Part shown: positions 4,236 through 58,877 of the stretch, in pieces
Numbering within the stretch: position 1 is the stretch's first letter
Layout of the letters: each line of letters begins with the position of its first letter
The notes under the pieces: model-generated
Database searches by the model: none
What the model was told of the DNA's origin: nothing
The model's input: the letters and a program-made list of their open reading frames with translations, nothing else
DNA from: Blasia pusilla
Lineage: Eukaryota
NCBI GenBank assembly: GCA_050084515.1
Contig: CM114271.1
Location: 12,276,001 to 12,340,000 of the forward strand
Length of the DNA: 64,000 nucleotides
Direction of reading: 5' to 3'
Position numbers and translations under genes: made by a program

Positions 4236-4336
4236 GTCCAATGAGATGATTATAATTCTGCCCCACTTTCCATTTGGTGTATGGCTAACAATTAATTGGC
4301 ACTTCCATGTTATGGTGCACATTTCAGATTCATTAA

Positions 4337-19469: not shown

Positions 19470-19805
19470 ATTCTTGGCATTCTTTGGCAAAGACATGACA
19501 TTCTTGACATTCTTTGGCACATCCATTCTCCTTGAGGAACTCGAACAAGAGGTGGCGTCAAACATGCCATTTTCCATCCTCTGGAACAACCATCACATAC
19601 TAGCATTGTGGTTGTTTCCCTAGCAGATCCACACAACATACACCGCAAGCCTACAAGAATGATTGCCAAGCTTGGATCAATTATACCATAAATGTTGGAA
19701 AGGTGACATTGCGCAGAATTACGCACATGATCCTTCCAAACCATACCATCACATCCCTCTAATAAAAGAACACTAGATGGCAAAACCTCACGCACCCTCA
19801 ATATG
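19470..19805 (-). pseudogene. Gypsy integrase C-terminus plus PHD finger fragment
   Basis: ILRVREVLPSSVLLLEGCDG..CHL..LRCMLCG..MLVCDGCSRGWKMACLTPPLVRVPQGEWMCQR (ORF 19442-19921) has PHD C4-H-C3 spacing. Confidence 0.85.
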
Positions 19806-19809
19806 GTCC

Positions 19810-23186: not shown

Positions 23187-24345
23187 GTTGTCAAACGTGT
23201 ACAAATCGCTACAAAATCCACATGGCTGGTCACATCTATATACCATACCACACCGATCTTCCTTACACATAGATAGATCCACACACATACAAAAATGAAC
23301 TCATGCACGTACGTCAAGATTTTAAAACTAGAGTAAAATCTGCTCACACGGCTAACTCCACTCTTGAATCTACATCGGCATATCAAGCCACATCCATCCT
23401 CTGCTATGAGGGAATTCGGACGCTAGCACCCTAGTTCCTACTATACACAAAGTAAGAGAGATGCTCCAAAGGCTTAAAATTAGAAAGATAGCTTGGAAAA
23501 GCCATCTCTCCCTCTCTCATAGCCTTGGGAAGAGCTAAACGGCTCTTCCCCCAAAAATAGCCTTCACACGGTAACTTGCGAGCATAAGTTACCGCGTTGA
23601 CTCGGTTAACGGGTCATGTGGCCAAAATAGAAAATAAGGGGAATCATTATAAAAGATATTCTTAATGCACCAAACTTATCTTCAACCTCATCCAACATCT
23701 CAAGACAAAGTTACACCTAAACCGCCCACTGACTCTCTATGACGTTGACATAGTAGAATCTATATCAATTGGCTAACTAAGATGTAATATCTGTTGTGCG
23801 CATACAAATCACTAAAAAATCCACATCGGTGGTCACATCCACACAACACCATCCTGATCTTCCTTACATGCAAGTAGATCCACATGCATACAAACATGAG
23901 CTCATGCATGTACATCGAGACAACAAAACCGCCCCCTTAGTTGGTAGTTGGATCTCCCTAACTCTAGATAGCATACATCACATCTACCTAACATGACCTA
24001 CTACCTTATACACATCTCCAACATAATAATTTTCCCATGAGAATTGCATCAAGAGATGGGGTAGGACACGACATATATCATCCCATAGAACAACCATCAC
24101 ACAACAACATAGTGGTTGCACCCCTTACAAATCCACACAAAACACATCTCAAGCCCGCAAGTACCATTTCCAAGCTTAGATCCACTATCGCGTCCATTTC
24201 TAAAAGATGACATGGTACACATTTGTGTACATGATCCTTCCAAACCATAACATTATGTCCCTCTAACATGAGGAGTGCGATCCATAATACCTTGTGCACT
24301 TGAAAAATCGTCCGCCCTACAGTAATATCTAGTGTCATGGGTGCC
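23187..24345 (-). mobile_element. PHD-gypsy 3' end: LTR (~23187-23925), PPT, 3'UTR, INT-C/PHD (24060-24345)
   Basis: ORF 24078-24338 (LLMLEGHNVMVWKDHVHKCVPCHL..LRCVLCG..MLLCDGCSMG). PPT AAGGGGGCGG on the minus strand near 23928-23938. The LTR is homologous to 54747-55224 and 41480-41806. Confidence 0.8.
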
Positions 24346-24529: not shown

Positions 24530-24614
<85 letters not shown>

Positions 24615-26040
24615 CCAAGCCCACTCTCCTAATGAAAGACTTGGGCTACTCAAAAGGCAAGGAAGACCGTAGTTTTTCCACCTTATGCCAAGAGGTTCAA
24701 AAAAGAGAGAATAAGCTCTAAAGCTCTCTCTCCTTTGATATATCTCCTTCCCTCTCCCAAGCTCTTTCCATGATAACCTATGGAGGCTATGCTTGTAGGT
24801 CACCTCCTTGGCTCTTGTGCTGCTATAGGGGTTCAAGGGCCACTTCCCAAAGTGGAAAGTAAACTCTATTCATAATGGTATCTTACTCGAAATAGAAACT
24901 TTCTATATATAGCTCCAAATGAGCCGTAACGAAGGGAAAACCTACTCTCTCAAGTTACCTGTGTCCTCAATAAATCATCCTTGGCCTTTTAAGGTTATCC
25001 TCCAATATCCTCAAAGGTGATCAATCATAAAGTGGTTGATCCATCTTAAAAGTCTTGAGTGTTATTATATGCATACAGATCGCTACACAACATACATCGC
25101 TGCCATCAAATATACACACAAACATACAAGATACCATACTAACTCATAGCATCTAAACATCAAGACGATTGAGTACCAAAATATCTCCAATCGCCCTCCT
25201 AGTTGGGGTTTAAGTCCCTCTAATTTTAGATAGCCATCTATCCCTACCTACCATCACACTCATCTCTAGGCCCGATCGTGGCTCCATCGTTAGTCGACTT
25301 CTAGTCCATGTCACAAATACAAGTTTGAATATATGACTGCCTAGTATCTCCACTATGTACATCTAAGATACATCCACTTTCCTTGAGGAACCCTAGTGAG
25401 AGGTGGCGTCATACATTCCATGTGCCACCCTCTCAAACATCCATCATAAACTAGCCTAGTGGTTGCACCATGGGCACAACAGACACATTAAGCCTGTAGG
25501 AACTACTACTAAGCTTCCGATCAACTAGACAATCAATGTTAGGAAGGTGACATGGTGCAGAGTAACACACATGGTCCATCCAAACCATACCATCGTGCCC
25601 CTCCAATAAGAGGACACCAGATAGTAAGGCATCTCGCACTCTCAAGATGATGCACCCTTTAGTCACATCCAATATTGTAGGTGTCATCTGTTGCAAGTAG
25701 ACATAATCTCCTTGATGAAAAATCTAGATTGTTGGTCAATAACCACCTTCCTTAATATTCAAATATCTCAAAGTATCTCGAGGTTGCAAAATTTCCAAGT
25801 TCTCAAACGCCATGGACATAACCTTCCAAAATAACTCAGCCCTCTAAGAACATGCTCGCATCCATACATCAGGGTCATTAAGGTTCAACACCTCACCAAA
25901 ATCATGATGAATTGTCGTAGGTAAATCATGCTCTTGGCCATAAGGAAATAAGTACAATGAGAAAGACTTTAATTAGGGCTTGATCAAACAAGGCCTAAAA
26001 ATCCCCACAAAACTTCATCCCTTGGTGTGTCAGGACTTCG
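24350..26040 (-). mobile_element. Second PHD-gypsy 3' end: LTR (~24350-25190), PPT, PHD and integrase C-terminus (~25350-26000)
   Basis: Minus-strand translation gives ..AFENLEILQPRDTLRY..GGY..GDYVYLQQMTPTILDVTKGCIILRVR..CHL.. followed by [30 protein letters not shown]. Confidence 0.8.
24533..24610. repeat. (CT)39 microsatellite inside an LTR
   Basis: Pure CT run read directly from the sequence. Confidence 0.95.
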
Positions 26041-38479: not shown

Positions 38480-39460
38480 TGAACAAAGATTCTTCATTGT
38501 ATGTGCTTGTGGAGCTTCCTTTGAAGAAGATTGGCTCTTAAAATCTGATTCCAGCGGATGGAGCTATTATGGAGCCAAAATAGCATAGCTCCTTCCACAT
38601 GCTACTGTAGGATTGCCGCCAAGAGGACCTTCCAAATACTTGGAGGATAGGCGGTGGGTCTGAGCTTATTTGGAACAAGAGTTCTGAATTCTTTTCTATT
38701 GACTCTTAAGATTGGATTGGGACAGTACAAGCTATTCTCGAGCTGGAACAACATCTTCCATGGCCAATTGTAAGGCTCCCTCCAACAAGAGTTTCCAAAA
38801 CTTGGAGGATAGGCGGTGGGTCAAAGCTCCTTTCAAGCTAGAGTTCCGAATGCTTTTCAATTAGTTCTCGAGATCCAATTCTGACGGTACAAGCTATTCT
38901 TGAGCTCAAATAACATCTTCAGCGACTCATTGCAAGGCTATTCCCCATAGGACTTTCCAAATAGTTGGAGCATAGGTGGTGAGTCGGAGCTTAGTTGGAA
39001 CTAGAATTCCTAATGATTTTGAACTTTCCCAAGAAGATCCAATTCCGGTAGTAGGAACAACTCCTTCCATGGGGTACTACAGGGTTGTCCCTAGTAGGAC
39101 CTTCAAGATAGTTAGAGGTCGTTTGAAACTAGAGGTCCGGACGAACGCTTTTGAATTCACTTTTGAGCTCCAATTCTGGCAGTGGAGTAGCTCCTTCCAT
39201 GGGCATTTTCAGAGCTTTTCCTAAGAGGACCTTCAAAATAGTCAGAGTTCATGTGGAATTAGAGTTCTAAGTGCTTTGGAATAGGCTCTTTAGATCCGAT
39301 TCCGACGGTAAGAATGGCTCCTTTCGTGGGAAACTCCAAGGCTACCCCCATGAGGACCTTGGAATTATTTGGCGGATAGATGGTGGGTAGGAAGTCCTTT
39401 TGAACTAGAGTTCCAAATGATTTGGAATTGGCTCTTCTTAAGATCTAATTCTGACAATAG
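38480..39460 (-). repeat. ~160-bp tandem array upstream of transposase copy B (continues at 41270-41480)
   Basis: AGGACCTTCCAAATA..GGAGGATAGGCGGTGGGTC..GGAAC-A/T-AGAGTTC recurs at ~38625, 38790, 38950, 39095, 39226, 39353 and 41399. Confidence 0.85.
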
Positions 39461-40687: not shown

Positions 40688-41479
40688 CATGCTACTCCTA
40701 AAACCACCTACGTCATATTACTATGACTCCTTCGACGTCTAAGTCGGAACCATCAATCTAGGCTTCTCCTCATACAAGGGGGCCGATCAGATTAATGGTG
40801 CTTAGAAAAGTAGATGCTGAGAATCCAACAATGTATAAGGAATCCTTCCCAAGTGGGTTAATGTGGACTCTTTGGATTGGTGTCCACGATTATAGCTCTT
40901 GCATTAGAGGTGGGTGATCCATCTTATAGATACACTACAGTACTGATCTGGAATTCCTTTGTATGAATCTCAGTTCTATACCATAATATTGAAGTGCTAA
41001 TTCCATATTATCCATATACTGAATCGAAAGTAAGGCAAAACTATCATCATCCTCCCACATATAAATCAATCCTTGAAGTAGCTCATAGTTGGAACCGGTT
41101 GGAATCAAAACTTACATTCTAATCCATATCCTCTATCCCACTATGAGATAAGGAAAGGGAGGAGGGGACGGCTTCATAAATCATTGGGCCTCGAGAATCA
41201 TTGGGCTCGAGAATAGACTACTGCTATTGATCTCACCAACAACAAAGATGATTTACAATGGAAAGCTAGATTGGACCTTATTGGGAAGTAGAGTTCCAAA
41301 TGCTTTTCAATTGGCTCCTAAGATTCGATTCCAGATTTAGGAGCTATTTAGTAGCTGCAACAGGTCCTCCGATAGGAAATTATAGGGCTACAGCCAAGAG
41401 GACCTTCCAAATACAAAGAGGATAAGTGGTGGGTCAAAGCTCATTTAGAACTAGAGTTTCAAATGCTTTTCTATTTGTA

Positions 41480-44400
41480 TAGGTTACTAGATGGCCCTTA
41501 AACCGAACAACTGGTAACATGGCTACCAAAGACCAAAATAGGGAAATTTCAAAAACTATATTTCCAACGCAATAGAATGTGTCTCTGAACTCATGCAACA
41601 TCTCAGGACAAAGTTACATCCAAAAAACCCTCTAACCCTCTAGGTGTCGGCTAACTAAGATGAAACCATTATCTTACACATACACTTTGCTACATAATCC
41701 ACATCGTCGGTCGTATCTACAAACCACACAACATCAATCTTCCCAACACATGGGTTGATCCACTAATAAACAGAATATACTCACACATATACATCAAAAT
41801 TGCACAACCGCCCCCCTAGCTAGCAGTTGGGTCTCCCTAACTCCAAATAGCATACATCACATCTACTTGACATGATCTACTACTTTATACACATCTAGCA
41901 CCGTCGATTTTGTCATCCCTACATCTCCCAACACATGCTTGTCTGCGGATCCATCTTATCTATCTCCATCTAGAGATATCGATGTATCTAGATGTCATCC
42001 TACAACTCTACAGCATTGCAGCTACCCACCGTGTTGATTCCTCCAAAGAGATCTTATACTCTTGCACCCACACAATAGGTGTGATATCTGAAGATATCAA
42101 GTCTCCACACCAAGAGCACAATTGTGAATTGCCTTTGTATGCTCTAAGACATAGCACAACTCCATGCCTACATCACAAGCTTCTCTACATTCCTCTACAA
42201 CTAAACCCTTGTACCCAACAACGATAAAGAGGTCTTTGGACCATAAGAAGAGACATTCATCCTTGCATGTCTCTCCGTGGGACTATTTGCTACGGGGATG
42301 TCCTCGGCATATACGTCCTCTCCAAAAACTTTCCTGGTCAACTAAGATCACATGTAAATGCTGCCAACATGGTTACTGTATCGTCACGTGCTGGACCCGA
42401 GCCAATAAGAAACCGTCTCCTCCAAGAAATCAAGAATGAAACCAAAGGGGCATAACACCATACTCCCTACCAACACATCATATGACTCTATCGGTGTCGT
42501 AATTTCCCGAGTGTGTAGCATGGCACTTTTTGACTAAATTTTTGTGTCATACACCGACTCTTCTTGAACGTCAATCTCAAGTATTGCTAAAGTGCATGTT
42601 CAGTAAGACACACCCAAAATACTTATCTACATCCAAAAACACTCACATTAGTCTAGTCTGGGTCAATAAGCCTTCAAACTCCACGAGTTTTCAACTCAAG
42701 CCATTCATCAAGCTCAATCCTCCTAACACCTCACTTCCTAACACTATCAAGTCTTCCTAAACTTGAGGCAGACTTAATGGTTAGTCTCGACAGCTAAAAC
42801 AATGCTTGTATGCCTAGCAGTCCAAATTGTCTAATGGACCTCACATGAGTCCCTAACCAAGACCCAACAAATGAGTCACGGGTTGGAATCCAAGAAGGAC
42901 CTCTAGAATCCACTCACTTGGACTTGGCTTGGTATTTTCATCCTAATGCCAACCTCCCAATCCATTCTATGTCTTTTGTTTGCCCTGTGGCTCCCCAAAG
43001 TGGAGTTCATGTCCCAAGCACCCTTGGAGACCCTCCCTCTTATATTTACTTAAAGGATTCTCCACTAGAGTTCTCCTATTCCACCTTGGTGCATGTTTGG
43101 CTATGAAGGTCACGACACTTTGGCTAGAGTTTAACAACTAACTCCTGTCAAGTCATGTACTGCATTGGTGACATGCTCCCAATATAGGCATGTATTTGAA
43201 AAGGACAAGGCTGAATGTTCCCTTTTTGTAACCCCAATGCCAAGCATATTGCCTTCCCTTACATCAAGGGTTGCGCGCCTAAATAATGTAGAATGCATTG
43301 TGGGTGGTACACCGTACATGTGGGACTAACCAAGGGGAACACTCGTGCTTAATTATCCAAAAATACCACATGTGGTGTCACCATGGCTTGTTCTATGGCT
43401 AGGCGAGGTGACATATCCACCAACTTTTCCGCTTCAGCCTACCATGAATGAGTGGGGAATATCACAAGCACATGCTCCAAGGGCAGGTCCACTTGACGCC
43501 ACCACCTTCTCAACAACCACCTCCAAACAAGAGGCAATTACCTCTCCACGCTCACACATTGTGGCGTCGAGGCAGAACACCTCCATTGGTCCAACTTCCA
43601 TCGTCACTGACTCCATAGCTGAAACAACATAGCCTCCCTCACCCTAGTGGCCACCTCCAACAACATGATCGACATTGGCTCCACTCGAGCCGACGTAGGA
43701 GTTGTCTCTCCAACTCCTCATGACGTTGATGCACTTGCCTCACGTGTGAGCATAATTGGTTGTCTAGGCACCATCGAGGGTATGTGAAGTGTCTCTCACA
43801 ACATAAAAAAATGGAGAACCGTGTCTTATCACCCAGAAATTCTCTCCTTGGTAGCTTGGTCAGTCTCGTAGCAAGTCACCACCATAGCAGCGTCTACCTA
43901 AGTTGCCCACATAAACCTCAAACCTGTATAATCCTTTCCTGTATCTTGGACATGACATGGAGGTTGGAGCCACAATAACTACTCTCGGATCCTTGCTTGT
44001 CACTAGCTGCATCATTGTCATGACAACAATCATGTGCTCCTACTCATTGATGGAAGTGAAGAGCGCTAAATTTGGGGCACTTCCTCCATACGCTCTGACT
44101 AGTGGTGGAACCTTGCCGCCACAATCGTCAACTCCTCAATCTTCACCAACTCTATGACCCCTAGACCCTTGGCCTACCTCGACACATGGCTCTTGGCAAA
44201 GATCAAAACACCTATCCCTACTATGACCATATCAATGAAAATGCTCACATTGCAACTAGGTGGAGCCATCCTAGCAATCAAAGGCGCCCTTGGCCTTCTA
44301 CCATGTTGTGGGTAGTTCCTCTGCCTATGGAGCCCACCACACATCCAACAGGACATGGCGGATCCTTGTTGGGAAACATATGCTGATATAGGTCCTTGAC

Positions 44401-46790
44401 TCATGGGCTCACAATACCCGCCTTGCTCTCTAGGCACACTAGTCCACTCCTGAGGTACTAGTGCATGCTAGCGCATCTATGGGGATACTTGTAGACCCGC
44501 CCACTCCGATGAAAATCTTGTGGTGACCCTATGCTCCTTACTCATGTTGAGCTCAACGTGGTCAAACCACCTTCAATGTGGGCTTCATTGTCTCAAGCAA
44601 CATCGTATTTTGGACTCTCCACTGTATCTCCTGGCCCAAAACTCCATACCAATACTGCACTAACTGCGCCTTAGTCACTCCATATGTCACAATGATCAGT
44701 CAACGTATACGCGTGAATACCTCTTAGAGTCTCACCCGATCTTCATTGAACACACGCCTTGGTAGGTCCTCCCCAATTGTCAAAGAACTCCATTGTGGGA
44801 CTGAAATTGGGTGGTGCTCTAGCACAAGAGGTCTTTGCCACCTCATCGTCCTCATTGCCATAATCTCCATCTAGTCCCTAAGTTGATGGTATACGCCTCT
44901 CTCCTTTCACTATCCCATTATATGCCTCATGACCCTAGAGCTCAAGACATCCTCAAGGCGCTAATCTCTCTCGAGTGTAAAGACTGACACTCCATGTAAT
45001 CATCTATCGACGGACCCTCTAAGTGATGGAAAAAACCCTTCCACGCCATAAAAGGGTTGAACCGCACAAGGGATTATGTCTCTTGGAAGTTACATAATGT
45101 GTCAAACTCTTGGATGTAGTCATCTAAGTCTATGGTGCCTAACGCACCCAAGAAATGATGCATGCCTTGATGGCTCATGTTGTCCATCTCCCTCCATGTG
45201 ACATTGACACCGTCTGCGATCTTGTCATCAGACCCGATGTCCAATGATGAGGATATAGCCACCGATGGAAGTCAAGGTAGCTCCTCACTCAAAACCCCTT
45301 AGTATCTCACTCCACTCGGTATCACTCCACTACCACTATTTGAACTACCCCGTTCTTCCGAACCCCAGAAGAACATCGTGATGACAACCTTGTGTCACAT
45401 GCACAAGCCCTCAGACTCACCAAGAGTCTTCCACACTCCTCGCTAGCTCACCTACCCTAATGATACTCCCGTGATGACACGTTTGGCCTCACCTACACTC
45501 AAAAATTGACCTAACACTCTCTCGAGTCATACAGGCGACCTATACGCAGGAAATCGCCCTATATCCACAAATATGCTACACATGGAAGGAGTCTACTCTC
45601 ATCACCATTGTTACACCCATCTAGGCTAAGCTAAAACCCAATACCAAACACCCTCAATGATGCGGGACACATATGGGGAAAGGGACTTAAATGGATAACC
45701 TGAATGCGCACGCCATCACCCTAGTTCACGGTCAACAATGACAACTCTATGTGGTGCGGCAACCTCCATGGCACAACATCTCCTTGAACAACGCCTTGAA
45801 CCTTCCGTCAACGTATGCGGACTACCTATTAGCATCGACGCATTTGTCTCCATCACTAATACCCCATCGCAAATCCTCGGTGCAGATCATCCATCTCAAC
45901 ACCCGACTTTGCATGGTGCTAGTAGGTCAACTCTATGTCAACGATTCAAAGTGGCTTGTAAAACAACCCACTAATCACAATCCTACCCAAAAACACAAGT
46001 CGCAAAAATATCTCCTACTATCCAAAAAATTGCAACTCCCACCAACCATGTAGCTCTCCAATCACCAACTACTTCTGATCTAACCTACCAAGTCCAATGC
46101 CTAACTACACCATCCACTCAACCTCGTAGGGGCATACCATGGTTAGCCTGCTTACTATGTCCATCATTCCAACCTTGTAGCATGTCTCTACTCTGTCCCA
46201 CCTACGCCACACTACCCTAGCTACTGCTCAAGTTCAGGCCCCTGAATGTCCATCCTAACCCACTTGACATGCAACCCTATGCAACTTTGATACACCTCCT
46301 TCTTGAACTCAGGCACGTGTCCCTATGGACACAACTTCATCGGTGACTCCTTCTCTTCCTGGCTTCATGTAACTAAAACTTGGCCGCATGGTGCCTTACG
46401 CAAAAAACCCTCACTATGTTAACTCCTTTCCTTTCGCCCATATGTGCTCTCATCCAAGCCCCGTCTTTCTCTTGCTATGTGTGGTGCCCTATGCATTGCT
46501 AGCTCCCCTCACATTTAATGAGAGCACACAACTCCCTATGAGCTCACGTCCCTTTAGCTTCCTACCCATCACGCATCCAACTTTACTTTTTCACCCCCTC
46601 TAACTCCACTCTCAACTTCTCCTCCTCCATCTTGCCCACACTCTTTCCTATGCACTCCCCCAACCATGCTTTGACGCTCTTAGTCTTGTTCGGCTCTCAC
46701 CTCTTTCCTTGCTTATTCCCTCCAAACTTAGCCTCTACGGCCTACTCCACCATTCTTCTCTCAAACACGATCTTCTCCCAAAAGAGGTAA
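41480..46790 (-). mobile_element. Internally deleted gypsy (PHD/DNMT family): 5' leader, gag, protease, DNMT motif I, 3'UTR, PPT, LTR (41480-41806)
   Basis: gag N-terminus HHFLGALGTIDLDDYIQEFD (ORF 45074-45262) and knuckle CWMCGGLHRQRNYP. Protease homologous to 55607-56095. ARV*DLFGGINT at ~42030-42065. PPT AGGGGGGCGG at ~41808-41817. Confidence 0.8.
42545..43117 (-). mobile_element. Internally deleted chromovirus solo LTR inserted in the protease region
   Basis: TG...CA ends homologous to 47308-48331, with near-TSD TTTTG/CTTTG. The flanking protease sequence is colinear with the uninterrupted copy at ~55850-55910. Confidence 0.8.
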
Positions 46791-47302: not shown

Positions 47303-47307
47303 GTAGG

Positions 47308-48331
47308 TGTCGTGCGCATACTCTCCTTGAACGTTAATCTTGTTTGTTGCAGAAGCGTGCGTTCAGTAGGTCACGCTCTCAACGCTGATCTGCATCCAAA
47401 CACGCACTTTGGTTAGTCGGGTCTTGGATCAATCAGCGGGATTACTTTCCGATTTCTCGTCTCGGACTCTCTCTTCAAGCTCAACCTTCCTAGTTTCGCG
47501 GTTTCCAACACGGGCAAGTCTCGAAAGACTTGGGACAGACTTTCTGGTCGGTTCAGGAACCTGAAACGACGTTTCGCGCCTAGCGGTTCCAACAGTCCGA
47601 TGAACATCCAATGAGTTCCTCACCAAGACTCGCACGAAGTGAATCTCGGGTTGGAATCCAAGTGTGGCGTACAAAGTCCACTCCCTTGGATCAGGTTTGG
47701 GTTTCGGGTTTCCGCGCCAAACTCCCGTTTCATCCCATGCCTCTGAAACGCCGTTTGGCGCCCAAAGTGGGTTTCGTTTCCGAGACATCTCAGAGAAGGT
47801 ACTCCCCTTACTAGTACTTCTGGGGATCTCCGGGGCCCCCTACATTTAGGAAAGACACCGGGCCCCTCATTGGCCCTCAACCCGATTGCTCTCTGAATCG
47901 TTTTCGGCCAATATCTCAGCCTGTACTTATGCGTTTGCTGAGATCTTTCGTGCGTTGGAAGCGTCTTGAGATCAGCTTTCCAACGCGCCCTTATTTGTCC
48001 CGAACGCATCTCGGAGCTCAACGTTATGGTCCTAAACACAGTCAGATTCTCCCAAACGCTAGTCATGTTCCAAACTGGTTCTCACCTCTTTGGCAACCAA
48101 CCTCCAAGACTCAACTCATCTCAAGTCTCGGCTCGCGTTTGGTCTAGGTTTCTGGTCGCGACCACTAATGCATGAAACGCACAACTCTGTTCGCGTTTCG
48201 TCTCTTAGACTTTTCCAAGAGACTCTACCAAACGCCTCTCCAAAGCGCAAACCTCGCGGCGTGAGTTCCTTTGAGTTCTGATGTTTCGCTTGGCTCGTAT
48301 TTGGTGTTATTTGGTTATGAGGGTCGCGACA
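47308..48331 (-). repeat. 3' LTR (1024 bp)
   Basis: Direct repeat of 53637-54665; PPT AGGAGGGGTGAG on the minus strand at 48332-48343. Confidence 0.95.
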
Positions 48332-49014
48332 CTCACCCCTCCTTAGAAGGTTGATGTCCTCATCAACGCAAACCTTATTGATGTTAAGTTCTGGGAAGCC
48401 GACCCCTTAACACGTAATCGCGTTCGGTAGCTAACCCGCAATTCCTCTTTTTGGCTTAAGTCTTAGGTTTGTCGCTAAAAAGACTTAGACTTATTAGCTT
48501 ACGCTACGATGAGTCGGACTAGTTACGCCAAACTAATCTAACTATCAAAATAAGCTCACTAAGTCGCAACCTAACACTTCACTCACTATTTGTAAACAAC
48601 ACTTTGTCTACCTAGCCAACTCACTACTTTTGGGTCACTGTATTCCACCTAGGCGCGTCACTAAGTTCAGTCATGAAACATGAATGAGATCACCACAAAC
48701 CCAAAGACTCATCCGCCTCGCCGACGTTAGGGCGAGCCCAAATGCTAGTACTTCAACACTTGGTCCTGATCTAGATGCCTTATCTGAATACAAGCTCTCA
48801 CCTCAAATACTCATTGTTTGGTCTCCTTGACTTACATCCTAAGCATATGAAGAACTACTCATTGCCTTGCACAAACCAAACTCAAAATTACAATACAAGC
48901 ATCGAATCTCCAAATCCATGTCTTCTTTATTGCAACAACTAAACCTTTCTAGTTACAACGGGTTATCGGCCCAAGCTTTCCGGTCACAAGTTATGTCCAT
49001 TGCTTCACCATGTA

Positions 49015-52000
49015 CTAACGCACGTGCTTTTCTTGCATCCATCTGAAGTCACGCAATGCTTTTTGCGCATGTTCTAGATCCGCCTCTGCAATCCAAGTCG
49101 CCTCTTTCACATGATAGCCTTTCCACTTGACCAAGTACTCGTTTTGGTGGCCCCTACGTCTGGAACGCGAGAATAGTCTCAACCTCGAACTCTGGTTCCT
49201 CATTTTCGATGACCGGTTGTGGTCTCAACATCCTCCTTCGCCCGGACGCACATTGTCTTGAAGATACTTCTTCAATAATGACACATGGAAAGTCGGGTGA
49301 ATCTTGAACTCGTTTTGGCGGCTCCAACGTGTACACATCCTCAAACGGCCTTGCCTTGATCACATACGGTCCAAAGATACTTGGTGACAATTTCATGAAA
49401 ATTCTTTCGGAAGACCGAGATTCTTAACACTCAACCACACTTGTTCCCCAACTTGAAACTCACATGGCGCCGACTTTTGTTAGCATGCTTTACGTACCTT
49501 AGTTGAGCCTTGGCGAGACTTTCTCTCGCTTCGCTCTTGTCGTTCTGCATTTCCACTAACAAACATTCCGCCGTTGCTTGACGAGTGTGTGTCGATGTAT
49601 TGCCCTTCGGAAGAGCTAAGTCAAGAGGCCCTTACGGTTCTCTTTGATACGCCGGAAGAAACGGAGATTCTCCGATTGCGAGAATGCTTAGTCGAGTTGT
49701 AACAATACTCAGCCATACTTAACCACTTGGCCCAATCTCTTTGGTCCGCACTCACGTAATTCCGTAAGTATTGGTTTACGACCGAGTTTACTTTTCCGTT
49801 TGCCCATCCGTTTGAGGATGGAAGGCCGTACTAAAGCTGAGTTTGGTCGGAACCTCTGAATAGATGTTTCCAAAGGCACTTTGGTAAACTTCGGATCCCG
49901 ATTGGACACAATGCTCCTAGGCAATCCGTGCGCACGCCACCAACCATCCAGGAATAGTCGGAAGTCGCGAGGTCGTCGCGAGACTCTCTCGTCGGCACAA
50001 ACCTCCCCAACTTGCTAAACCGATCAACTATCACAAGTATAGCGTTGTATCCCTCGGATTCTGGAAGACTCGTAATGAAATCCATGCTAATGCTTTGCAA
50101 GGGTCCCTCCGGATTGGCAAAGGATGAAGTAAACCTTGTTTCTTCGCATAAGACATGCGGTTCGGCGCGGAGTCACGCATGTTTTCACATATTGAGCAAC
50201 ATCTTCCTTCATGTTGGGCGGAAGAACCTCTTAGACAAAACAGCAAGAGTGGATTTCTCCCTTTGTGTCCCGCCAAAGGTCCATCATGACATTCCACAAA
50301 CACCTTGGTCCGTAGCTTGCCTTGGCCTACATAGATCTGCTCTGCTTAAACTTCAGCAAGCCGTGTCTCAAACTCAGATTGGCCACCTTTCGCCCCGCTT
50401 TAACTTCCCAAGGTACTCCTCGCTTGCTCATCCTTCATGTATCCTTCACGAATCCTTCTTTCCAGTCTGTTTCATTAGGGAACATTGCTCTCAACACTTG
50501 TGTAAATCGATGGCATATGTTCATCCTGCGACTTAACGATCCGGAATGACATTGTCTTTCCCGGCTTGTGGATTAGCTCCACATTCATCAACGCCAAGGT
50601 ATCATGCCACCGGTTGTTTTGGCCACGCGATCCTGGGTCTCAAAATACTTGAGCGATATGTTATCGGTGAATACTCGAGTCTGTGAAGTCCGAAATAGTG
50701 ACGCCACTTCCTCAAGCAATGAACCACCGCAAACAACTCTTTCTCATGAGTAGGCCATCTCTTTCGGTGTCGGTCGCTTCTTGCTTTCGTGATGCTCTGG
50801 TCTCCTTTTTGCACCAACATTCCCTGCAATCGCGAAATCACTAGCATCCGTGTGCACCTAACAGCTTGTTCAAACTCCGGCGATTTGAAGCGGTTTCTGA
50901 GAGGATCTCTTTGACTCGATTGAACGCTGTATCCACTTCCTCGGTCCATGTAGTATTGGCAAACTTTGCGGTCCAATCCGTGAGAGGTTTCACTATGCCC
51001 GAAAAATTCTTCACGTATGTCCGTAAAACTCGACTCCGATGAACCTTCTCATCCCTTCACCGTGGAAGGCGGTTCCCATTCGCAATCGCGCTCACCTTTT
51101 CCATGTCCTGGACTCACTCCATCCAGACTGACCACATGTCCCAAGAACTTGATCTTCGTCAAACCGAACTCACTCTTATCCGCATTCGCATACGACTTGT
51201 TAGCCTAAGTTTCTCAAACACCGTCTTCAAATGTCGGCGTGCTCCTCTAGTGTTTTCGAATAGATGAGTATGTCATCTATATAGATGATCACAAACTCAT
51301 CCGTCTCCTTGTGAAAGATGGAGTTCATCAAAGTGGTAAACGTCGGAGGCGCATTACAAAGACCGAAGGCATTACTACAAACTCGAACGAACCGTATCTC
51401 GCCCTCAGCGAGTCTTCTCTACATCCGCCGGCAATCCGAATCTGATAATATCCTGATTTCAGGTCAATCCGGCTGAAATACTTGGCACCGACAATCGATC
51501 AAAGAGGTCATCCATCCTCGGTAGAGAGATAGTTATTCCTTACCGTCACTTTATTCAGCGCCCGATAATCAACACGAGTCTCAACTTCCCATCCTTCTTC
51601 TTGACAAAGAGGACGGGCGCCCCATAAGGTGACTTGCTCGTTCGGATGTAACCCCTCTCTAGGAGTTCACCCAACTGTTTCTTCAACTCAGCAAGTTCCT
51701 CTTGATTCAACCTATATGGTGCCTTTGAAGGTGGTTGAGATCCTGGTATCACCTCAATCTTATGATCAACCGCCCTATGTGGTGGCAACTCGTCGGAAGC
51801 TCCTTAGTCAACACATCTTCAAATTCTTTCACAACTCTCTTGAGTGTTTTGGGATCTCCTTGAAGCTGAGTTCTGATCTTTGCATCTTGCGCTTGCATCA
51901 TCCTCTACTCGTCTCATCAAGCAAAGGAATCCTTCCTCTAACTCGCCAAACTCGTCCTCGTGATGGCGTTCACCAACTCCGTCTTTCTAGGCACCTCACG

Positions 52001-53484
52001 AACCAATCGGCGTCCGTCCGTTTGCCGTTAACCAAGACGCTTAACCTCAAAGGTCTCCGCCTCAGTTCCACCTCATACGCATCCAAGAACGTGTTCCCCA
52101 AGACTCGTCGATACCGTCCATCTCGCAAATCAGAAAATTCTCCTTCAACTCAAATACTCCGCATCTCACAACTAGCCCTAAAACCAGATCGATGTCCGGT
52201 GGGATTTTCCTCCCGCGAATCCTACCTAATGGGTTCATCCGCTTTGGTGGTTGGCAATCCCAACGTTTTTACGATTCTCGGACTCAAGAATGAGTGCGAA
52301 GCACTGTATCAACGAGCAACATCACATCGCGATTAGCGATCTTGGATCCTAGGTAAACCAAATTGGGCGCCCTCTTGGTGACTGTAGAGATGTATCTAGA
52401 TCTCCCTCCGATAAATGCTTAGCGGCAAACGCAATCATACTTGGTTTACTAACCTTGGGCCTCACACATTCCTTAGCCATATGCCCGGGTTCGCCACAAT
52501 TATAACAAATCACTTTGGCATTCGTTGACTTAGAACGGCGGCCCCTTCGGCCAGCGTTGAGTTCCACTCGTTTAGCTTTGGGCTGGGAGAGACCCTCCAT
52601 GGTCACGCTCACCCCATTCCAAACCCTCTTGGATGTCCCTTTATTCTTTCGTAATTTAGAAAAACTTTTTGTCTCAAAGGGTTTGGGTGTTGGACTTCAT
52701 TGTCCCCAATCCGCTCGGCTAGTCTCAAGAGGTCCGCGACACGTCTGGGATGTGAGGCATACGAAAGAGAGCCTTTCGGCACTCGGTTTGAGCCCACTTA
52801 GGAAGATCACCTTTTAGTATGTTCATCCGTGGAAAGTACACTCATGAGCGCACTAAACTCTCGCACATAAGCGCCAAGTGATCCACTCTGGCGCAACCTC
52901 ACCACCTCCATGCCATCGCGGTACTCTGATATTCCGGAGTGAATCGGTTCCCAATCAACTCCTTGAAATCTTCCCAACTCAACGTTTTCCCCGACCTAGA
53001 TGTTCTTTCCGGTGAGCCGTCCACCAATGGAGAGCGTGATCCTTGAAACGTGACCGCTCTGATCACCTTGTCTTGTTTATATCGCTTTTGCGCTTCGAAA
53101 TAGAGTTCGAGTTCCGTTAGAAACTCGCTCACTTTCCGAGAACGCCCCATTCTGTGAATGGCGTTGGCAAATTAGTCTTACAAAGCTTCTTGCGTAACTA
53201 GAGGCTCCATTTGACTTGAATTCCGAGATCACCTTGCTCTGTTCAGCCATCTGGTCCGCCATCACCTTCATCAATCCCATCATTTGGGTATAAAAGGCCG
53301 GATCGTGTAAGTTTGGACCCGAAGGTCCCGCGGAAAGATTTTCGGTTGGAACATCCTCATGTCTGTGACTCGGCACTTCGGGAGTCGCAAATTCCACCTC
53401 CGGCTCTCGGTCCGTCATTGATTCGTCTCTTGGCTTCTTTGCTTTGACTCGCGGTTTCCTCGGTTCTTCGCCCTTGGTCGCCAT
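49015..53484 (-). pseudogene. gag-pol polyprotein (frameshifted): gag, CCHC knuckle, protease, RT, RNase H, integrase, chromodomain
   Basis: [47 protein letters not shown] at ~51265-51290; [53 protein letters not shown]. Confidence 0.93.
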
Positions 53485-53622
53485 TTGCGAGTCGTCGCCT
53501 TTTCTCAGATCTCCTCCTCGCCTCTTGCGTTCCTCCTCGGCGTCGCGGTCTTCCGGCTACCTTGAGTTCTCCCCAAACGCCCAGATCTTCAACGACCCCA
53601 AGTTCACGCTCATCAAGGAATT

Positions 53623-53634
53623 GCTCTGATACCA
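53623..53634 (-). promoter_or_regulatory. Primer-binding site complementary to tRNA-iMet
   Basis: TGGTATCAGAGC on the minus strand, 2 nt from the 5' LTR. Confidence 0.95.
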
Positions 53635-53636
53635 CG

Positions 53637-54665
53637 TGTCGTGCGCCTACTCTCCTTGAACGTTAATCTTGTTTGTTGCGGAAGCGTGCGTTCAGTAGGT
53701 CACGCTCTCAACGCTGATCTGCATCCAAACACGCACTTCGGTTAGTCGGGTCTTGGATCAATCAGCGGGATTACTTTCCGAGTTCTCGTCTCGGACTCTC
53801 TCTTCAAGCTCAACCTTCCTAGTTTCGCGGTTTCAACACGGGCAAGTCTCAAAGACTTGGGACAGACTTTCTGGTCGGTTCGGGAACACAAACGGCGTTT
53901 CACGCCTAGCGGTTCCAAATCGTCCGATGAACATCCAATGAGTTCCTCACCAAGACTCGCACGAAGTGAATCTGGTTGGAATCCAAGTGTGGCGTACAAA
54001 GTCCACTCCCTTGGATCAGGTTTGGGTTTCGGGTTTCCGCGCCAAACTCCCGTTTCATCCCGTGCCTTTGAAACGCCGTTTGGCGCCCAAAGTGGGGTTT
54101 CGTTTCCCGAGACATCTCAGAGAAGGTACTCCCCTTACTAGTACTTCTGGGGATCTCCGGGGGCCCCCTACATTTAGGGAAAGACACCCGGGCCCCTCCA
54201 ATTGGCCCTCAACCCGATTGCTCTCTGAATCATTTTCGGCCAATATCTCAGCCTGTACTTATGCGTTTGCTGAGATCTTTCGTGCGTTGGAAGCGTCTTG
54301 AGATCAGCTTTCCAACGCGCCCTTATTTGTCCCGAACGCATCTCGGAGCTCAACGTTATGGTCCTAAACACAGTCAGATTCTCCCAAACGCTAGTCATGT
54401 TCCAAACTGGTTCTCACCTCTTTGGCAACCAACCTCCAAGACTCAACTCATCTCAAGTCTCGGCTCGCGTTTGGTCTAGGTTTCCTGGTCGCGACCACTA
54501 ACGCATGAAACGCACAACTCTGTTCCGCGTTTCGTCTCTTAGACTTTTCCAAGAGACTCTACCAAACGCCTCTCCAAAGCGCAAACCTCGCGGCGTGAGT
54601 TCCTTTGAGTTCTGATGTTTCGCTTGGCTCGTATTTGGTGTTATTTGGTTATGAGGGTCGTGACA
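53637..54665 (-). repeat. 5' LTR (1029 bp)
   Basis: Direct repeat of 47308-48331. Confidence 0.95.
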
Positions 54666-54746
54666 GTAGGAGCAACTAGACGCTTGGGGAGAATTCAAGA
54701 TAGTAGTGAGACCTAGACCCTCATGGAAGGACGCAAAAGACAAAGA

Positions 54747-57400
54747 TGTCGTGCGCATACACATCGCTACAAAACCCACATCGTTGGTCACATCTACACA
54801 CCATACAACACCGATCTTCCCCAATATATGGGTAGATCCACAAAAATACCCCTCCTAACGATAACCTGCGTGCACAGGTTACGGAGTGATCGTTGACTCA
54901 GTCAATGGGTCACTTGATGGACTAAAACCAAAATAGAGAAATTTCCATAATCGACGTTCCCAACACAATAGACCTCGCGCCAACCTCATTCGACATCTCG
55001 GGACAAAGTTACACCCAAACAGCCGGCTGCCTCACTATGCCGTCGACGCGATAGAACTGTGCCTACGTCAAAATAAGATGTGACAACTGTTGTGCGCATA
55101 CACATTGCTACACAACCCACATTGCTGATCACATCTACACACCACACAACACCGATCTTTCCCAACATACGGGTAGATCCACACATAACCAAACAAACTC
55201 ACGCATACACACTGGGATCCCACAACCGTCCCCTTAGTTGGAAATTGGGTCCCCTTAACTCCTGATAGCACACACATATATACCCGAAAAGATCTCCTAT
55301 CCTACACACATTTAGCACCATCGGTGTTATCATCCCTGCAACATTGCCACACTGTAGCAACCCGCAGTGTTGATCCCTCCAAAGAGATCTAACACTCTTG
55401 TACCCTGCTCCAAACATAGACACGGCTCCATGCCTGCCTCATGAGCTTGTCTGCACTCCACACATCTCAACGCTTGTCCCCAACAACAATAAAGAAGCTC
55501 TCCACCATGGGAAGAGACACCCACCCTGACATTTCTCTCCGTACGTGGGACTATCCGCTACCGGAATGTCCTCCGCATGTTTGCTCCTTTCCTTGAACCC
55601 TCCTGATCATTGAACATCACCTGTGAATACTGCCAACGTGGTCACCGTATCCTCACGCAGTTGACCACCACTAACTCCCACAAATTGCATTGGTAGGTGG
55701 CTCACCCGTCCATCACCTAATCGCCACCCTGGCCAATAAGAAATCATCTCCTCCCAAAAATCCAGAATGAAACCTAGAGGGTACAACACCGTACTCCCTA
55801 CCAACACATCATATGACTCTTCCGATGTCGTAATTGCCCGAGTGTGCACCATTGCACTATCCGACTCATGCTCTGGTTGGAGTCTAACCACCAATTCCTG
55901 TCGAGTCATGAATTGCGTGGGTGATACGCCCCCAATAGCGGTATGTATTTGAAAGGAACAACGCTTGATGTCGCCTTTCCGTAATCCCAACGCCAAACAC
56001 GCCGTCTTTCCTAACATCAAGGGCTGCACTCCCGAATCAAGTAGGACGCGTTGCTGGTGGTACACCATACCTGTGGGACTAACCAAGCCAAACACTCATG
56101 CTTGGTTATCCAACAACACAACACTTGGTGTGATCATGGCTCGCTCAATGGCCGGTCGAGCTGGCATGTCTACCAACTTTTCCGCCGCCGCATGCCATGA
56201 CTTAGTGGGGGACGTCTCGAGCTCCTGCTCCGAGGGCAAGTCAACCACCTCCTCAACTACCTCTGAACGAGAGGCAGTCACCTCTCCATGCTCACATGAT
56301 GTGGTGGCCAACCGGAACACCTCCGCTGGTCCAACTCCTAACGTCGCCAAATCCATGGCGGAAAAAAATGGAGCGTGGCTCACCCTAGTGGCCATCTCCA
56401 ACAACATGGTCGACAGTGGATCCTCCCGAGCCGACATAAGAGTCATCTCTCCAACTCCTCGTAACTTCGACGCACTTATCCCACCTGTGGGTACTACCGG
56501 TCATCGAGACACCAACGACGGTGTATGTAGTGCCTCCGACAATGTGAACGACTAGGGAAACATGGCTTGCCGCCCATCGATCCCCTCCTCTGGGTCAATC
56601 TCAACCCCACCTCTCGATGGGTTGATTACTCTCGCAGCACCCGGAGTCACCACCGCAGTAGCCTCAACCTGAACCGCACTACACATAAATCCCATCCCTG
56701 CAGAATCCTCACTAGCATCGTGGTATGATGTGGAGGCTGGCGCCACACTAGCTACTCTTAGCTCTGGGCCTGCCTCTAGTTGTATCATCATCATGGCAGC
56801 AATCCTCTGCTCCAACTGATTGATGCGCATAAGGAGCGTTGCATCGGATGCATGTCCTCCATCTCCCGTGATTGGTGATGGCACTCTACCACCACAATCA
56901 TCTACCACTTGATCTGCACCAACTCTCCCGCCCCCAAGTCCTCTGCCTACCTTAGGACGTACCTCCCACCAAAGATCATAACACCTATCCCTAGTGTGAC
57001 CATATTGATGACAATGATCACATTGCAACTATGGTGGGGCCATCCTAGGTGGCTCCTGAATACTCAGAGGCATCCTAGGCCCTCTACCATGTTGTGGGCA
57101 GTCCCTCTGCCTATGTGACCCACCACACTTCCAACAAGCCAACCTTGGTCCCTGCTGGGAAACATATGTCGGTGTGGGCCGTTGCCTCATCATTTCACGA
57201 TACCCGCCTTGCTCTCTGGGCCCACCGGCCCGCTCTCGTGGTACTACTGCATGTTGGGGTACCTGTGGGTCAACTCTTACTCGTCGACCCGTTGTATCCC
57301 GCAAAAATCCGGTAGTGACCACCTGCTCCTCACTCATGTTGAGCTCTATCTGCTGAGACCACTTGAAGACCACCTTCAATGTGGGCTTCGTAGTGAGACG
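54747..57400 (-). mobile_element. Internally deleted gypsy (PHD/DNMT family): gag (two CCHC), protease, DNMT motif I, PPT, LTR (54747-55224)
   Basis: ORFs 57029-57493, 56552-57028, 56096-56446 and 55607-56095 lie in one frame split by stops: CWKCGGSHRQRDC, CDHCHQYGHTRDRC, VLLDSGVQPLMLG. After a frameshift comes TRVLDLFGGINT (~55365-55400). Confidence 0.85.
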
Positions 57401-58085
57401 CACATTATCCCAAAGACACTTCTTCAATAATGACATGGAAAGTAAGATGAATCTTGAACTCTTTTGGCAGCTCCAAGGTTTACACATCCTCAAACGGGTT
57501 TGCCTTGATCACATAGGGTCCAACATACTTGGCAAATAGCTTTGCAGAAAACTCCTTCGGAAGAGTGAGATTCTTCACACCCAACCACTCTTGCTCCCCT
57601 GCTTGGAATTTCACTTGGCACCGAATCTTGTTAGCATGCTTAAGGTACCTTAGTTGAGCCTTTGCAAGACTTCTTATTGCTCACTCCTCTTGTTCTCACA
57701 TCTCCACTAACAACCTTCTGTCGTTGCTTGTCGGGTCTATGCCGATGAAGTACCCATCGCAAGGGCCAAGTCAAGAAGCCCTTCTGGTTGAGATCCATAG
57801 GGCAAAAGAAACGGAGATTCTCATGTTGCAGAATGCTTGGTTGAGTTGTAGCAATACTCGGCCATACTTAGCTACTTTGCCCAATCTTGTTGATTTGCAC
57901 TCACGTAATTCCTTAAGTATTGATTCACGATCGAATTTACCTTTTACGTGTGTCCATCTATGTGGGGACCAAAGGTGGTACTAAAATCCAGCTTGTTCCT
58001 AAACATTATGAATAAGTGCTTCCAAAAAGAATTAGTAAACTTTGGATCCCAATTTGAAACAATACTCCTAGGCAACCCATGAGTC
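57400..58085 (-). mobile_element. Chromovirus integrase fragment fused to the gag of the DNMT/PHD family
   Basis: [35 protein letters not shown]; colinear with ~49250-49930. Confidence 0.85.
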
Positions 58086-58877
58086 CATTCTTTTAGCATC
58101 CATAAAAATTTGGTGGAGAGACATCCTAAAAATGTTGACCACATTGAGTTGGTTACAATGGATAGTGCTATTTGTTTGGCGACTAGGTTAACTAGGATGG
58201 TCAGCTTAGGTGGAGGTTGGTATATGACTCGAGGGTGTAGTCATGAGGCCATGACTAACACGTCACTCAGATGACGTGGAATAATGACACATCATCAATG
58301 ATATGGACTATTTAGTGTGATGTGTCACTAATGACATGGACTATTGCTGTGACATGTCACTGATGATGTGGACTTGAGTACGACTCGTCTAGTCATATGT
58401 GTATATTTTTCTAGTTACCACCAACGACTCCTTTAGTCATGGTTGGTGTGCAAAAGTTCAGAATATCCCATCAAAATGCACCAAATATACTCCATTGAGT
58501 TATAGTCATACAATTATGACTAGAGAGAACTTGAAGCTTACTACTTTAGTTTTTGAAGAGTACTGTGCAAGTTATATTGACATGACTAGTGGGAGTATAA
58601 ATTTTGGATATTTTGGGATGTTTATTATGCCTTTTGAACGGTGCAAGAATGAATGGATGTGAATTATTGAAATCCTCTTTTGAAAACAAATTTTGAGGGG
58701 TGGAATGTCACTTAAGAGTAGCTTCCATACACCAAATTACAAATATAATCATTATTACATGGCGTTATCATTGAAAAATAAATAAAAAAAACAAAGATCA
58801 AATATAGCAGGGTTTATGATCTCATCTTGAAAGAGCAAGAGAGATTATGTCATCCATGAAAACAAAGTTATTGCACC

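Follow-up and report, generated by a model that had tools for sequence, protein, structure and literature searches.

Retrotransposons that carry a cytosine-5 DNA methyltransferase (DNMT) are known from dinoflagellates and charophyte algae, as the initial annotation of the DNA analyzed here had stated, Symbiodinium and Klebsormidium being the described hosts (PMC5890265). KnitGypsy-Dnmt3 of the charophyte Klebsormidium nitens was described in 2018 by de Mendoza et al. (PMC5890265), a 2025 paper mentions retrotransposon-borne DNMT3 in streptophytes (PMC12344493) and a 2026 preprint mentions 'streptophytes (Gypsy-DNMT3)' (10.64898/2026.05.21.726589). The DNMT3 of SymbioDIRS methylated CG de novo in yeast, methylation of the cDNA on retrotranscription has been proposed for DIRS elements, and the acquisition of DNMTs in Symbiodinium is considered independent by the authors (PMC5890265). 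Here we analyze a stretch of 64,000 nucleotides from Blasia pusilla (contig CM114271.1, positions 12,276,001 to 12,340,000), referred to as the window and numbered from its first letter. With a probability of about 0.9, positions 57430-54747 on its minus strand represent a dead copy of a retrotransposon family with the Ty3/gypsy domain order that carries a DNMT3-like cytosine-5 DNA methyltransferase. The locus is a relic that does nothing itself and the kind of element it derives from has already been published.

The element at 57430-54747 (copy 1) retains gag with its zinc knuckles, the retropepsin and the purine tract before the 3' repeat, together with a short piece of DNMT. Open reading frames (ORFs) were defined from stop to stop and read from the minus strand of 54000-58500. 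The initial annotation had placed two CCHC knuckles, a VLLDSG protease and then a DNMT motif on the minus strand, which is how the sequence reads. The parts of copy 1 are listed below; P0155 is a protein of Marchantia, L004 a metagenome locus, and copies 2 and 3 are further fragments of the family in the window.

57140-57430, minus strand: C-terminal part of the gag capsid region (tblastn against P0155)
57092-57139, minus strand: first zinc knuckle, CWKCGGSHRQRDC, with the spacing CX2CX3HX4C, aligned to CWTCGGDHQRRDC of P0155 (ORF translation)
56981-57022, minus strand: second zinc knuckle, CDHCHQYGHTRDRC, aligned to CDHCGRAGHTRDRC of P0155 (ORF translation)
55676-56095, minus strand: retropepsin-type aspartic protease with VLLDSG at 56047-56030, in a 162-residue ORF (55607-56095)
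55411-55675, minus strand: linker between protease and methyltransferase with two frame changes, its collinear pieces lying in three frames
55333-55410, minus strand: piece of the DNMT3-like domain, the only one surviving, with motif I (the S-adenosylmethionine-binding loop) and the beginning of the helix after it, EQGTRVLDLFGGINTAGCYSVAMLQG
55316-55332, minus strand: deletion junction with about 4.2 kb gone; the DNMT reading stops at 55333 and homology to copy 3 runs from about 55316
55226-55315, minus strand: 3' untranslated remnant with the purine tract AAGGGGACGG at its end (55235-55226), aligned with copies 2 and 3 and L004
54747-55183, minus strand: 3' terminal repeats B1 (55183-55088), A2 (55087-54843) and B2 (54842-54747), the element ending at 54747

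Residues 200-799 of P0155 align to 57430-55559 in a single frame by tblastn (40.5% identity over 654 columns, E 2.8e-112), with five in-frame stops in the alignment, and copy 1 is 5'-truncated, beginning at about residue 200 of P0155. The first knuckle gives a weak Pfam zf-CCHC match (E 0.26). A Pfam scan of the protease ORF yields no direct match; its relatives match gag-asp_proteas or Asp_protease_2 and the ORF is 47.5% identical over 265 columns to P0001 of Calypogeia fissa. Within the linker, ERSKHAEDIPV (55591-55559) resembles ERNKSAEDTPV of P0155 and ADKLMRQAWS (55454-55425) resembles ADRLVKKAWS in a relative, with motif I following next. The purine tract has the counterpart GGGGGGCGAG in L004, and B1 and B2 of copy 1 are 90% identical over 96 nt. 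Missing at the junction are the remaining DNMT, the in-frame stop that follows it in relatives, reverse transcriptase (RT), RNase H, integrase and most of a PHD finger; the size of about 4.2 kb is taken from L004, where motif I lies near 5760 and the last PHD cysteine pair near 10054. No part of the window matches the RT-RNase H portion of relative P0160. Copy 1 can produce no methyltransferase, RT or integrase, and both it and copy 2 are non-autonomous.

Motif I of the methyltransferase is found at the same place in copies 1 and 2. Copy 1 reads EQGTRVLDLFGGINT at 55410-55366, within an ORF (55330-55557) whose translation includes LEQGTRVLDLFGGINTAGCYSVAMLQG, and P0001 reads PEQGIRLLDLFGGINTGLVAVLQ at the orthologous position. 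Through VAMLQ, copy 1 shares 18 of 30 residues with P0001 (PAMYPEQGIRLLDLFGGINTG---LVAVLQ) and the whole of P0001 finds this piece of the window with E 1.1e-4 (tblastn). Copy 2 reads ARV*DLFGGINT at 42065-42030, as had been noticed initially, and the LDLFGGINT stretches at 55392-55366 and 42053-42030 both align to relatives. Beyond the motif the same frame continues as AGCYSVAMLQG in copy 1 and VGSCNAVEL*DDI*IHRYL*ME in copy 2, both aligning with GLVAVLQAGIKVHQYLYVE of P0001. The 1-nt shift that the initial annotation placed after the motif is consequently not needed, and its readings (G/R)VATVWQ and VAAML are out of frame. For copy 2 the match to P0001 extends to IHRYL*ME, equivalent to VHQYLYVE, in which YLYVE belongs to motif II. 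Translated in all six frames, the window contains DLFGG exactly twice, once in each of these copies, against an expectation of 0.06 (200 first-order Markov simulations). When family DNMT profiles are run against the six-frame window, the two sites are the best two matches, copy 1 ranking second with the whole-domain profile and first with a profile of motifs I-II. The family profile covers the window only at profile positions 7-43, P0155 has no tblastn match in the window beyond about residue 920, and the catalytic motifs IV (PC), VI (ENV), VIII (R-x-R) and X are not present in the window copies. Pfam finds neither DNA_methylase nor protease in any of seven window ORFs (0/7 each), which for DNA_methylase is expected since the roughly 25 surviving residues are too short and too diverged. 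The window copies are relics and not methyltransferase genes. That the motif is a genuine C5-DNMT motif I nevertheless holds, as it is collinear with protease and linker in relatives that have motifs IV, VI, VIII and X.

Copy 3 has a PHD finger just upstream of its purine tract, another frame of copy 1, RSLWRDQHCGLLQCGNV, fits PSLDAILMGKLLCWRCV of copy 3 by eye, and MAFFT also superposes the two stretches. DLFGG might be a chance string, or what results when the decayed terminal PHD finger is translated in the wrong frame, an explanation that we consider extremely unlikely. Relatives found through the protease read LLDLFGGINTGLVAVLQ in the DLFGG frame at an equal distance from the protease and then run through a whole DNMT domain, while the PHD end of relative P0175 matches copy 3 with E 8e-39 and copies 1 and 2 with only E 0.22-0.47 (tblastn); the low expected count of DLFGG argues in the same direction. 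The PHD-frame reading was rejected because homology searches starting from the protease show the DNMT domain in the DLFGG frame.

Protein relatives of copy 1 carry a complete methyltransferase domain behind the same protease. Searched by HMMER against 1.84 billion representatives, the 162-residue protease ORF yielded 185 proteins at E<=1e-3; 46 of these reach E<=1e-10 and three E<=1e-30. The best, P0001, has the same protease followed by PEQGIRLLDLFGGINTGLVAVLQAGIKVHQYLYVERNE. PF00145 scores above the Pfam cut-off in four of ten scanned relatives from this search, with no match in the other six. With P0001 as query, a word-based search for longer proteins returned 25, mostly from Marchantia polymorpha, 15 of them with precomputed PF00145; a Pfam re-scan of eight longer proteins found PF00145 in six, a C-terminal PHD finger in one and nothing in one. 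P0155 (1278 residues) contains gag, two knuckles, the protease and a whole DNMT domain, P0160 has a DNMT running on into RT and RNase H, and P0175 has an integrase with a PHD finger at its end. The named relatives come from Marchantia, with at least 15 gene models, and from Calypogeia, Sphagnum fallax, Coleochaete, Closterium, Haematococcus and Hariotina. Four family members (P0236, P0222, P0196 and P0168) carry database labels such as a 'Spirochaetia bacterium' metagenome-assembled genome, 'transposase InsO family protein' and 'DNA (cytosine-5)-methyltransferase'; these bacterial and host-style labels are likely binning or annotation errors. Annotators should accordingly be aware that transposon ORFs of this family may be labelled as a host methyltransferase or a bacterial InsO transposase.

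The methyltransferase of the family classes as DNMT3-type by its ranking against the PDB and its motif order. In an alignment of 13 relative proteins, the invariant residues are L-F-x-G of motif I, C974, Q975 and G976 (PCQG), E1017 and V1019 (ENV), and R1059; conservation is at least 90% at P973, N1018 and R1057. The motifs follow in the unpermuted order I, IV, VI, VIII, X. Searched against the PDB, the family profile finds DNMT3A (7.7e-22), DNMT3C (2.5e-20) and DNMT3B (4e-19), with tobacco DRM as the next best (1.9e-9), followed by HaeIII (2.1e-8), DRM2 (3.7e-7) and DNMT2 (2.5e-5). Neither DNMT1 nor CMT chains occur among the matches listed (the best 60 of 68 PDB matches), and single relative sequences give the same ranking as the profile. 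Of the DNMT3/DRM assignment made initially, the DNMT3 part is upheld by the profile ranking and the DRM part is not, because the motif order is not permuted. For the DNMT of two apparently intact metagenome loci (L011 and L014), the ratio of non-synonymous to synonymous substitution rates (dN/dS) is 0.12 over 316 codons, with 0.18 for the protease. The enzyme of the family would most likely be an active de novo methyltransferase. Its target might be the element's own cDNA or insertion sites, as the initial annotation had suggested, or host DNA.

The presence of only a short N-terminal fragment of a DNMT in the window would also fit a piece of a host DNMT3 or DRM gene that was captured locally, or that merely adjoins an ordinary gypsy element, and was not an inherited part of it. 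Plant transposons pick up gene fragments, which lends this origin some general plausibility. We nevertheless regard it as very unlikely, given that the same protease, a linker of about 130 residues and the motif I junction recur in Marchantia, Calypogeia, Coleochaete, Closterium and metagenome contigs, that the window preserves the pieces of the linker in collinear order, and that the motif order is unpermuted, unlike that of DRM.

Several observations weigh against the assignment of copy 1 to a DNMT3-carrying family. Copy 1 retains only about 25 residues of the domain and copy 2 about 40, and the profile E values at the two sites are marginal (0.25-0.35 for the whole-domain profile and 0.008-0.014 for motifs I-II, with a database of six sequences). 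Protein identity to the best relatives is no higher than 40-57%, and the full-length ones were all found outside the source genome. Blastn of the 3' end of copy 2 against its upstream region finds no 5' A1 repeat. The DNMT of close decayed copies has a dN/dS of 0.4-1.05, as expected after insertion, which leaves one intact pair and saturated deep comparisons as the basis of the selection signal. Finally, the Klebsormidium domain produced no methylation in yeast, a result that its authors call 'inconclusive' (PMC5890265).

Intact relatives place the methyltransferase between protease and RT. Scanning metagenome contigs with the 13-protein alignment gave 597 candidate stretches, 162 confirmed relatives and 80 that were kept. 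Nine of the 14 best loci (L001-L004, L009-L012 and L014) encode gag, protease and DNMT and then directly RT and RNase H, six of the nine extending to the integrase and three to the PHD end. The other five are cut short: two run into the end of their contig within the DNMT, and in three (L005, L006 and L013) homology is lost at or near the DNMT end. A domain order other than protease-DNMT-RT is seen in none of the 14. The autonomous parent that had been predicted initially, with a DNMT between protease and RT, is thus represented among natural relatives, in which PF00145 and motifs IV, VI and VIII were found in this interval. L011 has two intact consecutive ORFs in the same frame, of 1369 and 1047 residues, the first matching Asp_protease_2 and DNA_methylase (PF00145) and the second RVT_1, RT_RNaseH, Integrase_H2C2, rve and PHD (PF00628) in Pfam. 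Intact relatives are about 9.1 kb long.

An in-frame stop separates DNMT and RT in all 11 loci that span the boundary, which represent only two lineages. The stop is TAG in ten and TAA in one, and the next codon is CAA in nine and CAG in two. The stops lie at the following locus positions.

L001: boundary stop at 13847
L002: boundary stop at 4245
L003: boundary stop at 2686
L004: boundary stop at 6940
L005: boundary stop at 1813
L009: boundary stop at 5335
L010: boundary stop at 1470
L011: boundary stop at 5083
L012: boundary stop at 13171
L013: boundary stop at 1367
L014: boundary stop at 2081

Being located upstream of a kept stop, the DNMT belongs to the gag-protease reading unit and not to pol in these relatives. 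In the gene models of Marchantia and Calypogeia, which are models only and not DNA, the corresponding tail shortly after the DNMT is the end of the protein. In many algal relatives, by contrast, a single protein contains both DNMT and RT. Plant viruses use UAG-CAR-YYA as a read-through signal, and the UAG-CAR context at the boundary looks like this signal. Intact relatives encode, in ORF1, gag with two CCHC knuckles, the aspartic protease and the methyltransferase, then one in-frame stop (UAG or UAA) followed by CAA or CAG, and in ORF2 RT, RNase H and an integrase with a PHD finger at its end. The methyltransferase would be made together with Gag and protease and be more abundant than RT and integrase, whose synthesis would depend entirely on read-through of the stop codon.

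The ends of the element are formed by direct repeats. A1 and A2, about 8.7 kb apart, are 94% identical in L001 and 92% in L004. In L004 the termini are A1 at 1676-2017 (5') and B1-A2-B2 at 10238-10805 (3'); this full layout is present in that one locus only, and B1-A2-B2 is also present in copies 1 and 3 of the window. Repeat A begins TGTCATGACC and repeat B terminates in GCACGACA. No terminal repeats were found in L011. The family appears to have split direct repeats rather than plain long terminal repeats (LTRs), though the element encodes a DDE integrase.

The window contains four more fragments of the family, and all five fragments are on the minus strand. Element B in the list is the separate Ty3/gypsy element at 47307-54665.

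41529-45187, minus strand: copy 2 (tblastn with P0155, blastn between copies, motif alignment with P0001)
45187-44951, minus strand: gag of copy 2 from residue 1, with knuckles and protease after it
43118-42536: insertion of about 580 nt in the protease of copy 2, resembling the LTR of element B
42071-41955, minus strand: DNMT motifs I-II of copy 2, GARV*DLFGGINTVGSCNAVEL*DDI*IHRYL*ME, aligned with P0001
41801-41670, minus strand: B1 of copy 2, with a partial A2, forming a 3' end like that of copy 1
23176-24344, minus strand: copy 3, 3' end only (P0175 residues 497-608, 50% identity over 112 columns, E 2.7e-27)
24344-24009, minus strand: integrase C-terminus and decayed PHD finger of copy 3, with the purine tract next
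23920-23783 and 23319-23176, minus strand: terminal repeats B1 and B2 of copy 3, with A2
25356-25972, minus strand: copy 4, integrase C-terminus and PHD finger (P0175 residues 401-555, 60%, and 576-608, 58%; E 8.9e-56)
19517-19807, minus strand: copy 5, integrase C-terminus and PHD finger (P0175 residues 508-604, 67% identity, E 3.9e-36)

At the motif, 71 nt of copies 1 and 2 align with 79% identity, and elsewhere their identity is 70-84% (blastn). In both, homology to copy 3 restarts at the same point, after the last PHD cysteine pair, while the edges of the gap on the DNMT side differ by about 81 nt, copy 2 retaining more. The initial annotation had taken copy 2 as independent; the two copies are homologous and have the 3' breakpoint of an internal deletion in common, and are therefore not independent. 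Their history most likely is that of a deletion derivative mobilized in trans: an ancestral deletion common to both would have produced a derivative with gag and protease only, which autonomous relatives would have copied in trans, the copies decaying afterwards. Copy 1 lost its 5' end and the internal 4.2 kb and later gained its five stops and two frame changes. It is unlikely that one deleted copy was duplicated locally long ago, or that two deletions occurred separately. The distance of 13 kb between copies 1 and 2, their common orientation and the location of all five fragments on one strand would suit a duplication, but the neighborhoods outside the element have only other repeats in common and the copies differ by 16-30%. 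Separate deletions would account for the differing 5' edges of the gap but not for the identical restart point of copy 3 homology, which they would not lead one to expect.

Sequencing reads and adjoining repeats complete the description of the locus. Only 26 of 4934 DNA reads are at least 99% alike to the window, and coverage is too low to derive counts of copies or junction reads. Paralogous DNA reads reach a depth of about 103 in the motif I bin compared with 32 and 31 in the neighboring bins, which is weak evidence in favor of the DNMT-carrying family. Just before 54747, 709 DNA reads depart from the window, with a low agreement of 0.46. RNA depth over the element is near zero except at a short repeat, 54697-54793, and it is only on this repeat, B2, that RNA reads of 90-95% likeness accumulate, to a depth of 20-37 in three runs. 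In one run five RNA reads match only the 31 nt encoding DLFGGINT (55365-55395) and are unlike the window on both sides; judged by eye, the flanks suggest a paralogue whose DNMT start is better kept, which is weak evidence. Element B, on the minus strand, is separated from the end of copy 1 by 80 nt. The tail of its integrase is chromodomain-like and its LTRs (47307-48331 and 53636-54665) are 98-100% identical, yet its frames are broken into many short ORFs. At the 5' start of copy 1, a truncated integrase of another family adjoins (57397-58240, minus strand), so that two truncated elements are joined here; its part 57397-58081 is 78% identical to element B. About 200 nt upstream of copy 3 there is a long (GA)n microsatellite (24530-24620), and repeat families of about 110-160 nt (38530-39434 and 41274-41478; D2, D10, D11 and D16) start where the homology of copy 2 ends, at about 41529.

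The value of the locus is that of a pointer to DNMT3-carrying retrotransposons in land plants, beyond the alga Klebsormidium. Among land plants, protein relatives are found in Marchantia, Calypogeia and Sphagnum, and one metagenome contig (L011) holds an apparently intact element. Full-text literature searches gave no text on Gypsy-DNMT3 copies of liverworts or mosses, and the supplements of PMC5890265 and PMC12344493 may list some. Tentatively, and at slightly less than even odds, Gypsy-DNMT3 would be an old green-plant lineage surviving in liverworts and Sphagnum, with a liverwort-type branch in which the DNMT, made with Gag and protease upstream of a leaky UAG-CAR stop and hence in capsid-like amounts, could travel in the particle and methylate new cDNA, the PHD reader of the integrase replacing a chromodomain. 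Many copies are present in the tractable Marchantia polymorpha, where the role of transposon-borne DNMTs could be tested. With an active Marchantia copy, one could ask whether the enzyme works and in which methylation context, whether UAG read-through sets the ratio of Gag-protease-DNMT to RT-integrase, and whether methylating its own DNA helps or restrains the element.

The closest described system is KnitGypsy-Dnmt3, which like the relatives found here has a non-permuted DNMT3-related domain within the coding region of an element of Gypsy composition (PMC5890265). No Klebsormidium sequence is among these relatives, and the comparison is with the published description. According to a figure legend its repeats are 'the same as that of a DIRS retrotransposon' (PMC5890265); in L004 they are arranged as A1 ... 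B1-A2-B2, and the layouts of this locus and of the 3' ends in the window would fit the 2018 remark on DIRS-like repeats with Gypsy domains (PMC5890265). In both systems the DNMT appears to be under purifying selection, with a Ka/Ks below 0.2 for KnitGypsy-Dnmt3 (PMC5890265) and the L011-L014 value reported above. The two differ in that the DNMT of KnitGypsy-Dnmt3 is in the Pol ORF (PMC5890265), whereas here it accompanies gag and protease upstream of the in-frame stop, and in their hosts, Klebsormidium in one case and liverworts, a moss and several green algae in the other. With host DNMT3A, 3B and 3C the relatives have in common the aligned motifs LFxGIxTGL, PC, ENV, AHRxRxxWxNL and ERxxGF and are, by eye, about 30-35% identical in aligned stretches. 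Motif I reads VLDLFGGISTGL in the relatives and VLSLFDGIATGL in DNMT3A, with FGG in place of the FDG of host DNMT3. Unlike host DNMT3, the relatives are without PWWP or ADD, and a retroviral-type protease precedes the domain in the same fusion protein. SymbioDIRS-Dnmt3 and SymbioLINE-Dnmt of Symbiodinium are likewise retrotransposons bearing a cytosine methyltransferase, but they are of other orders, with a tyrosine recombinase or an endonuclease instead of the DDE integrase seen here (PMC5890265). Chromoviruses and the PHD-bearing REM1 also have a chromatin reader, at the integrase C-terminus or elsewhere, which is thought to guide integration (PMC6673714). Where chromoviruses have a chromodomain, the family described here has a PHD finger (PF00628) as its reader, together with a DNMT.

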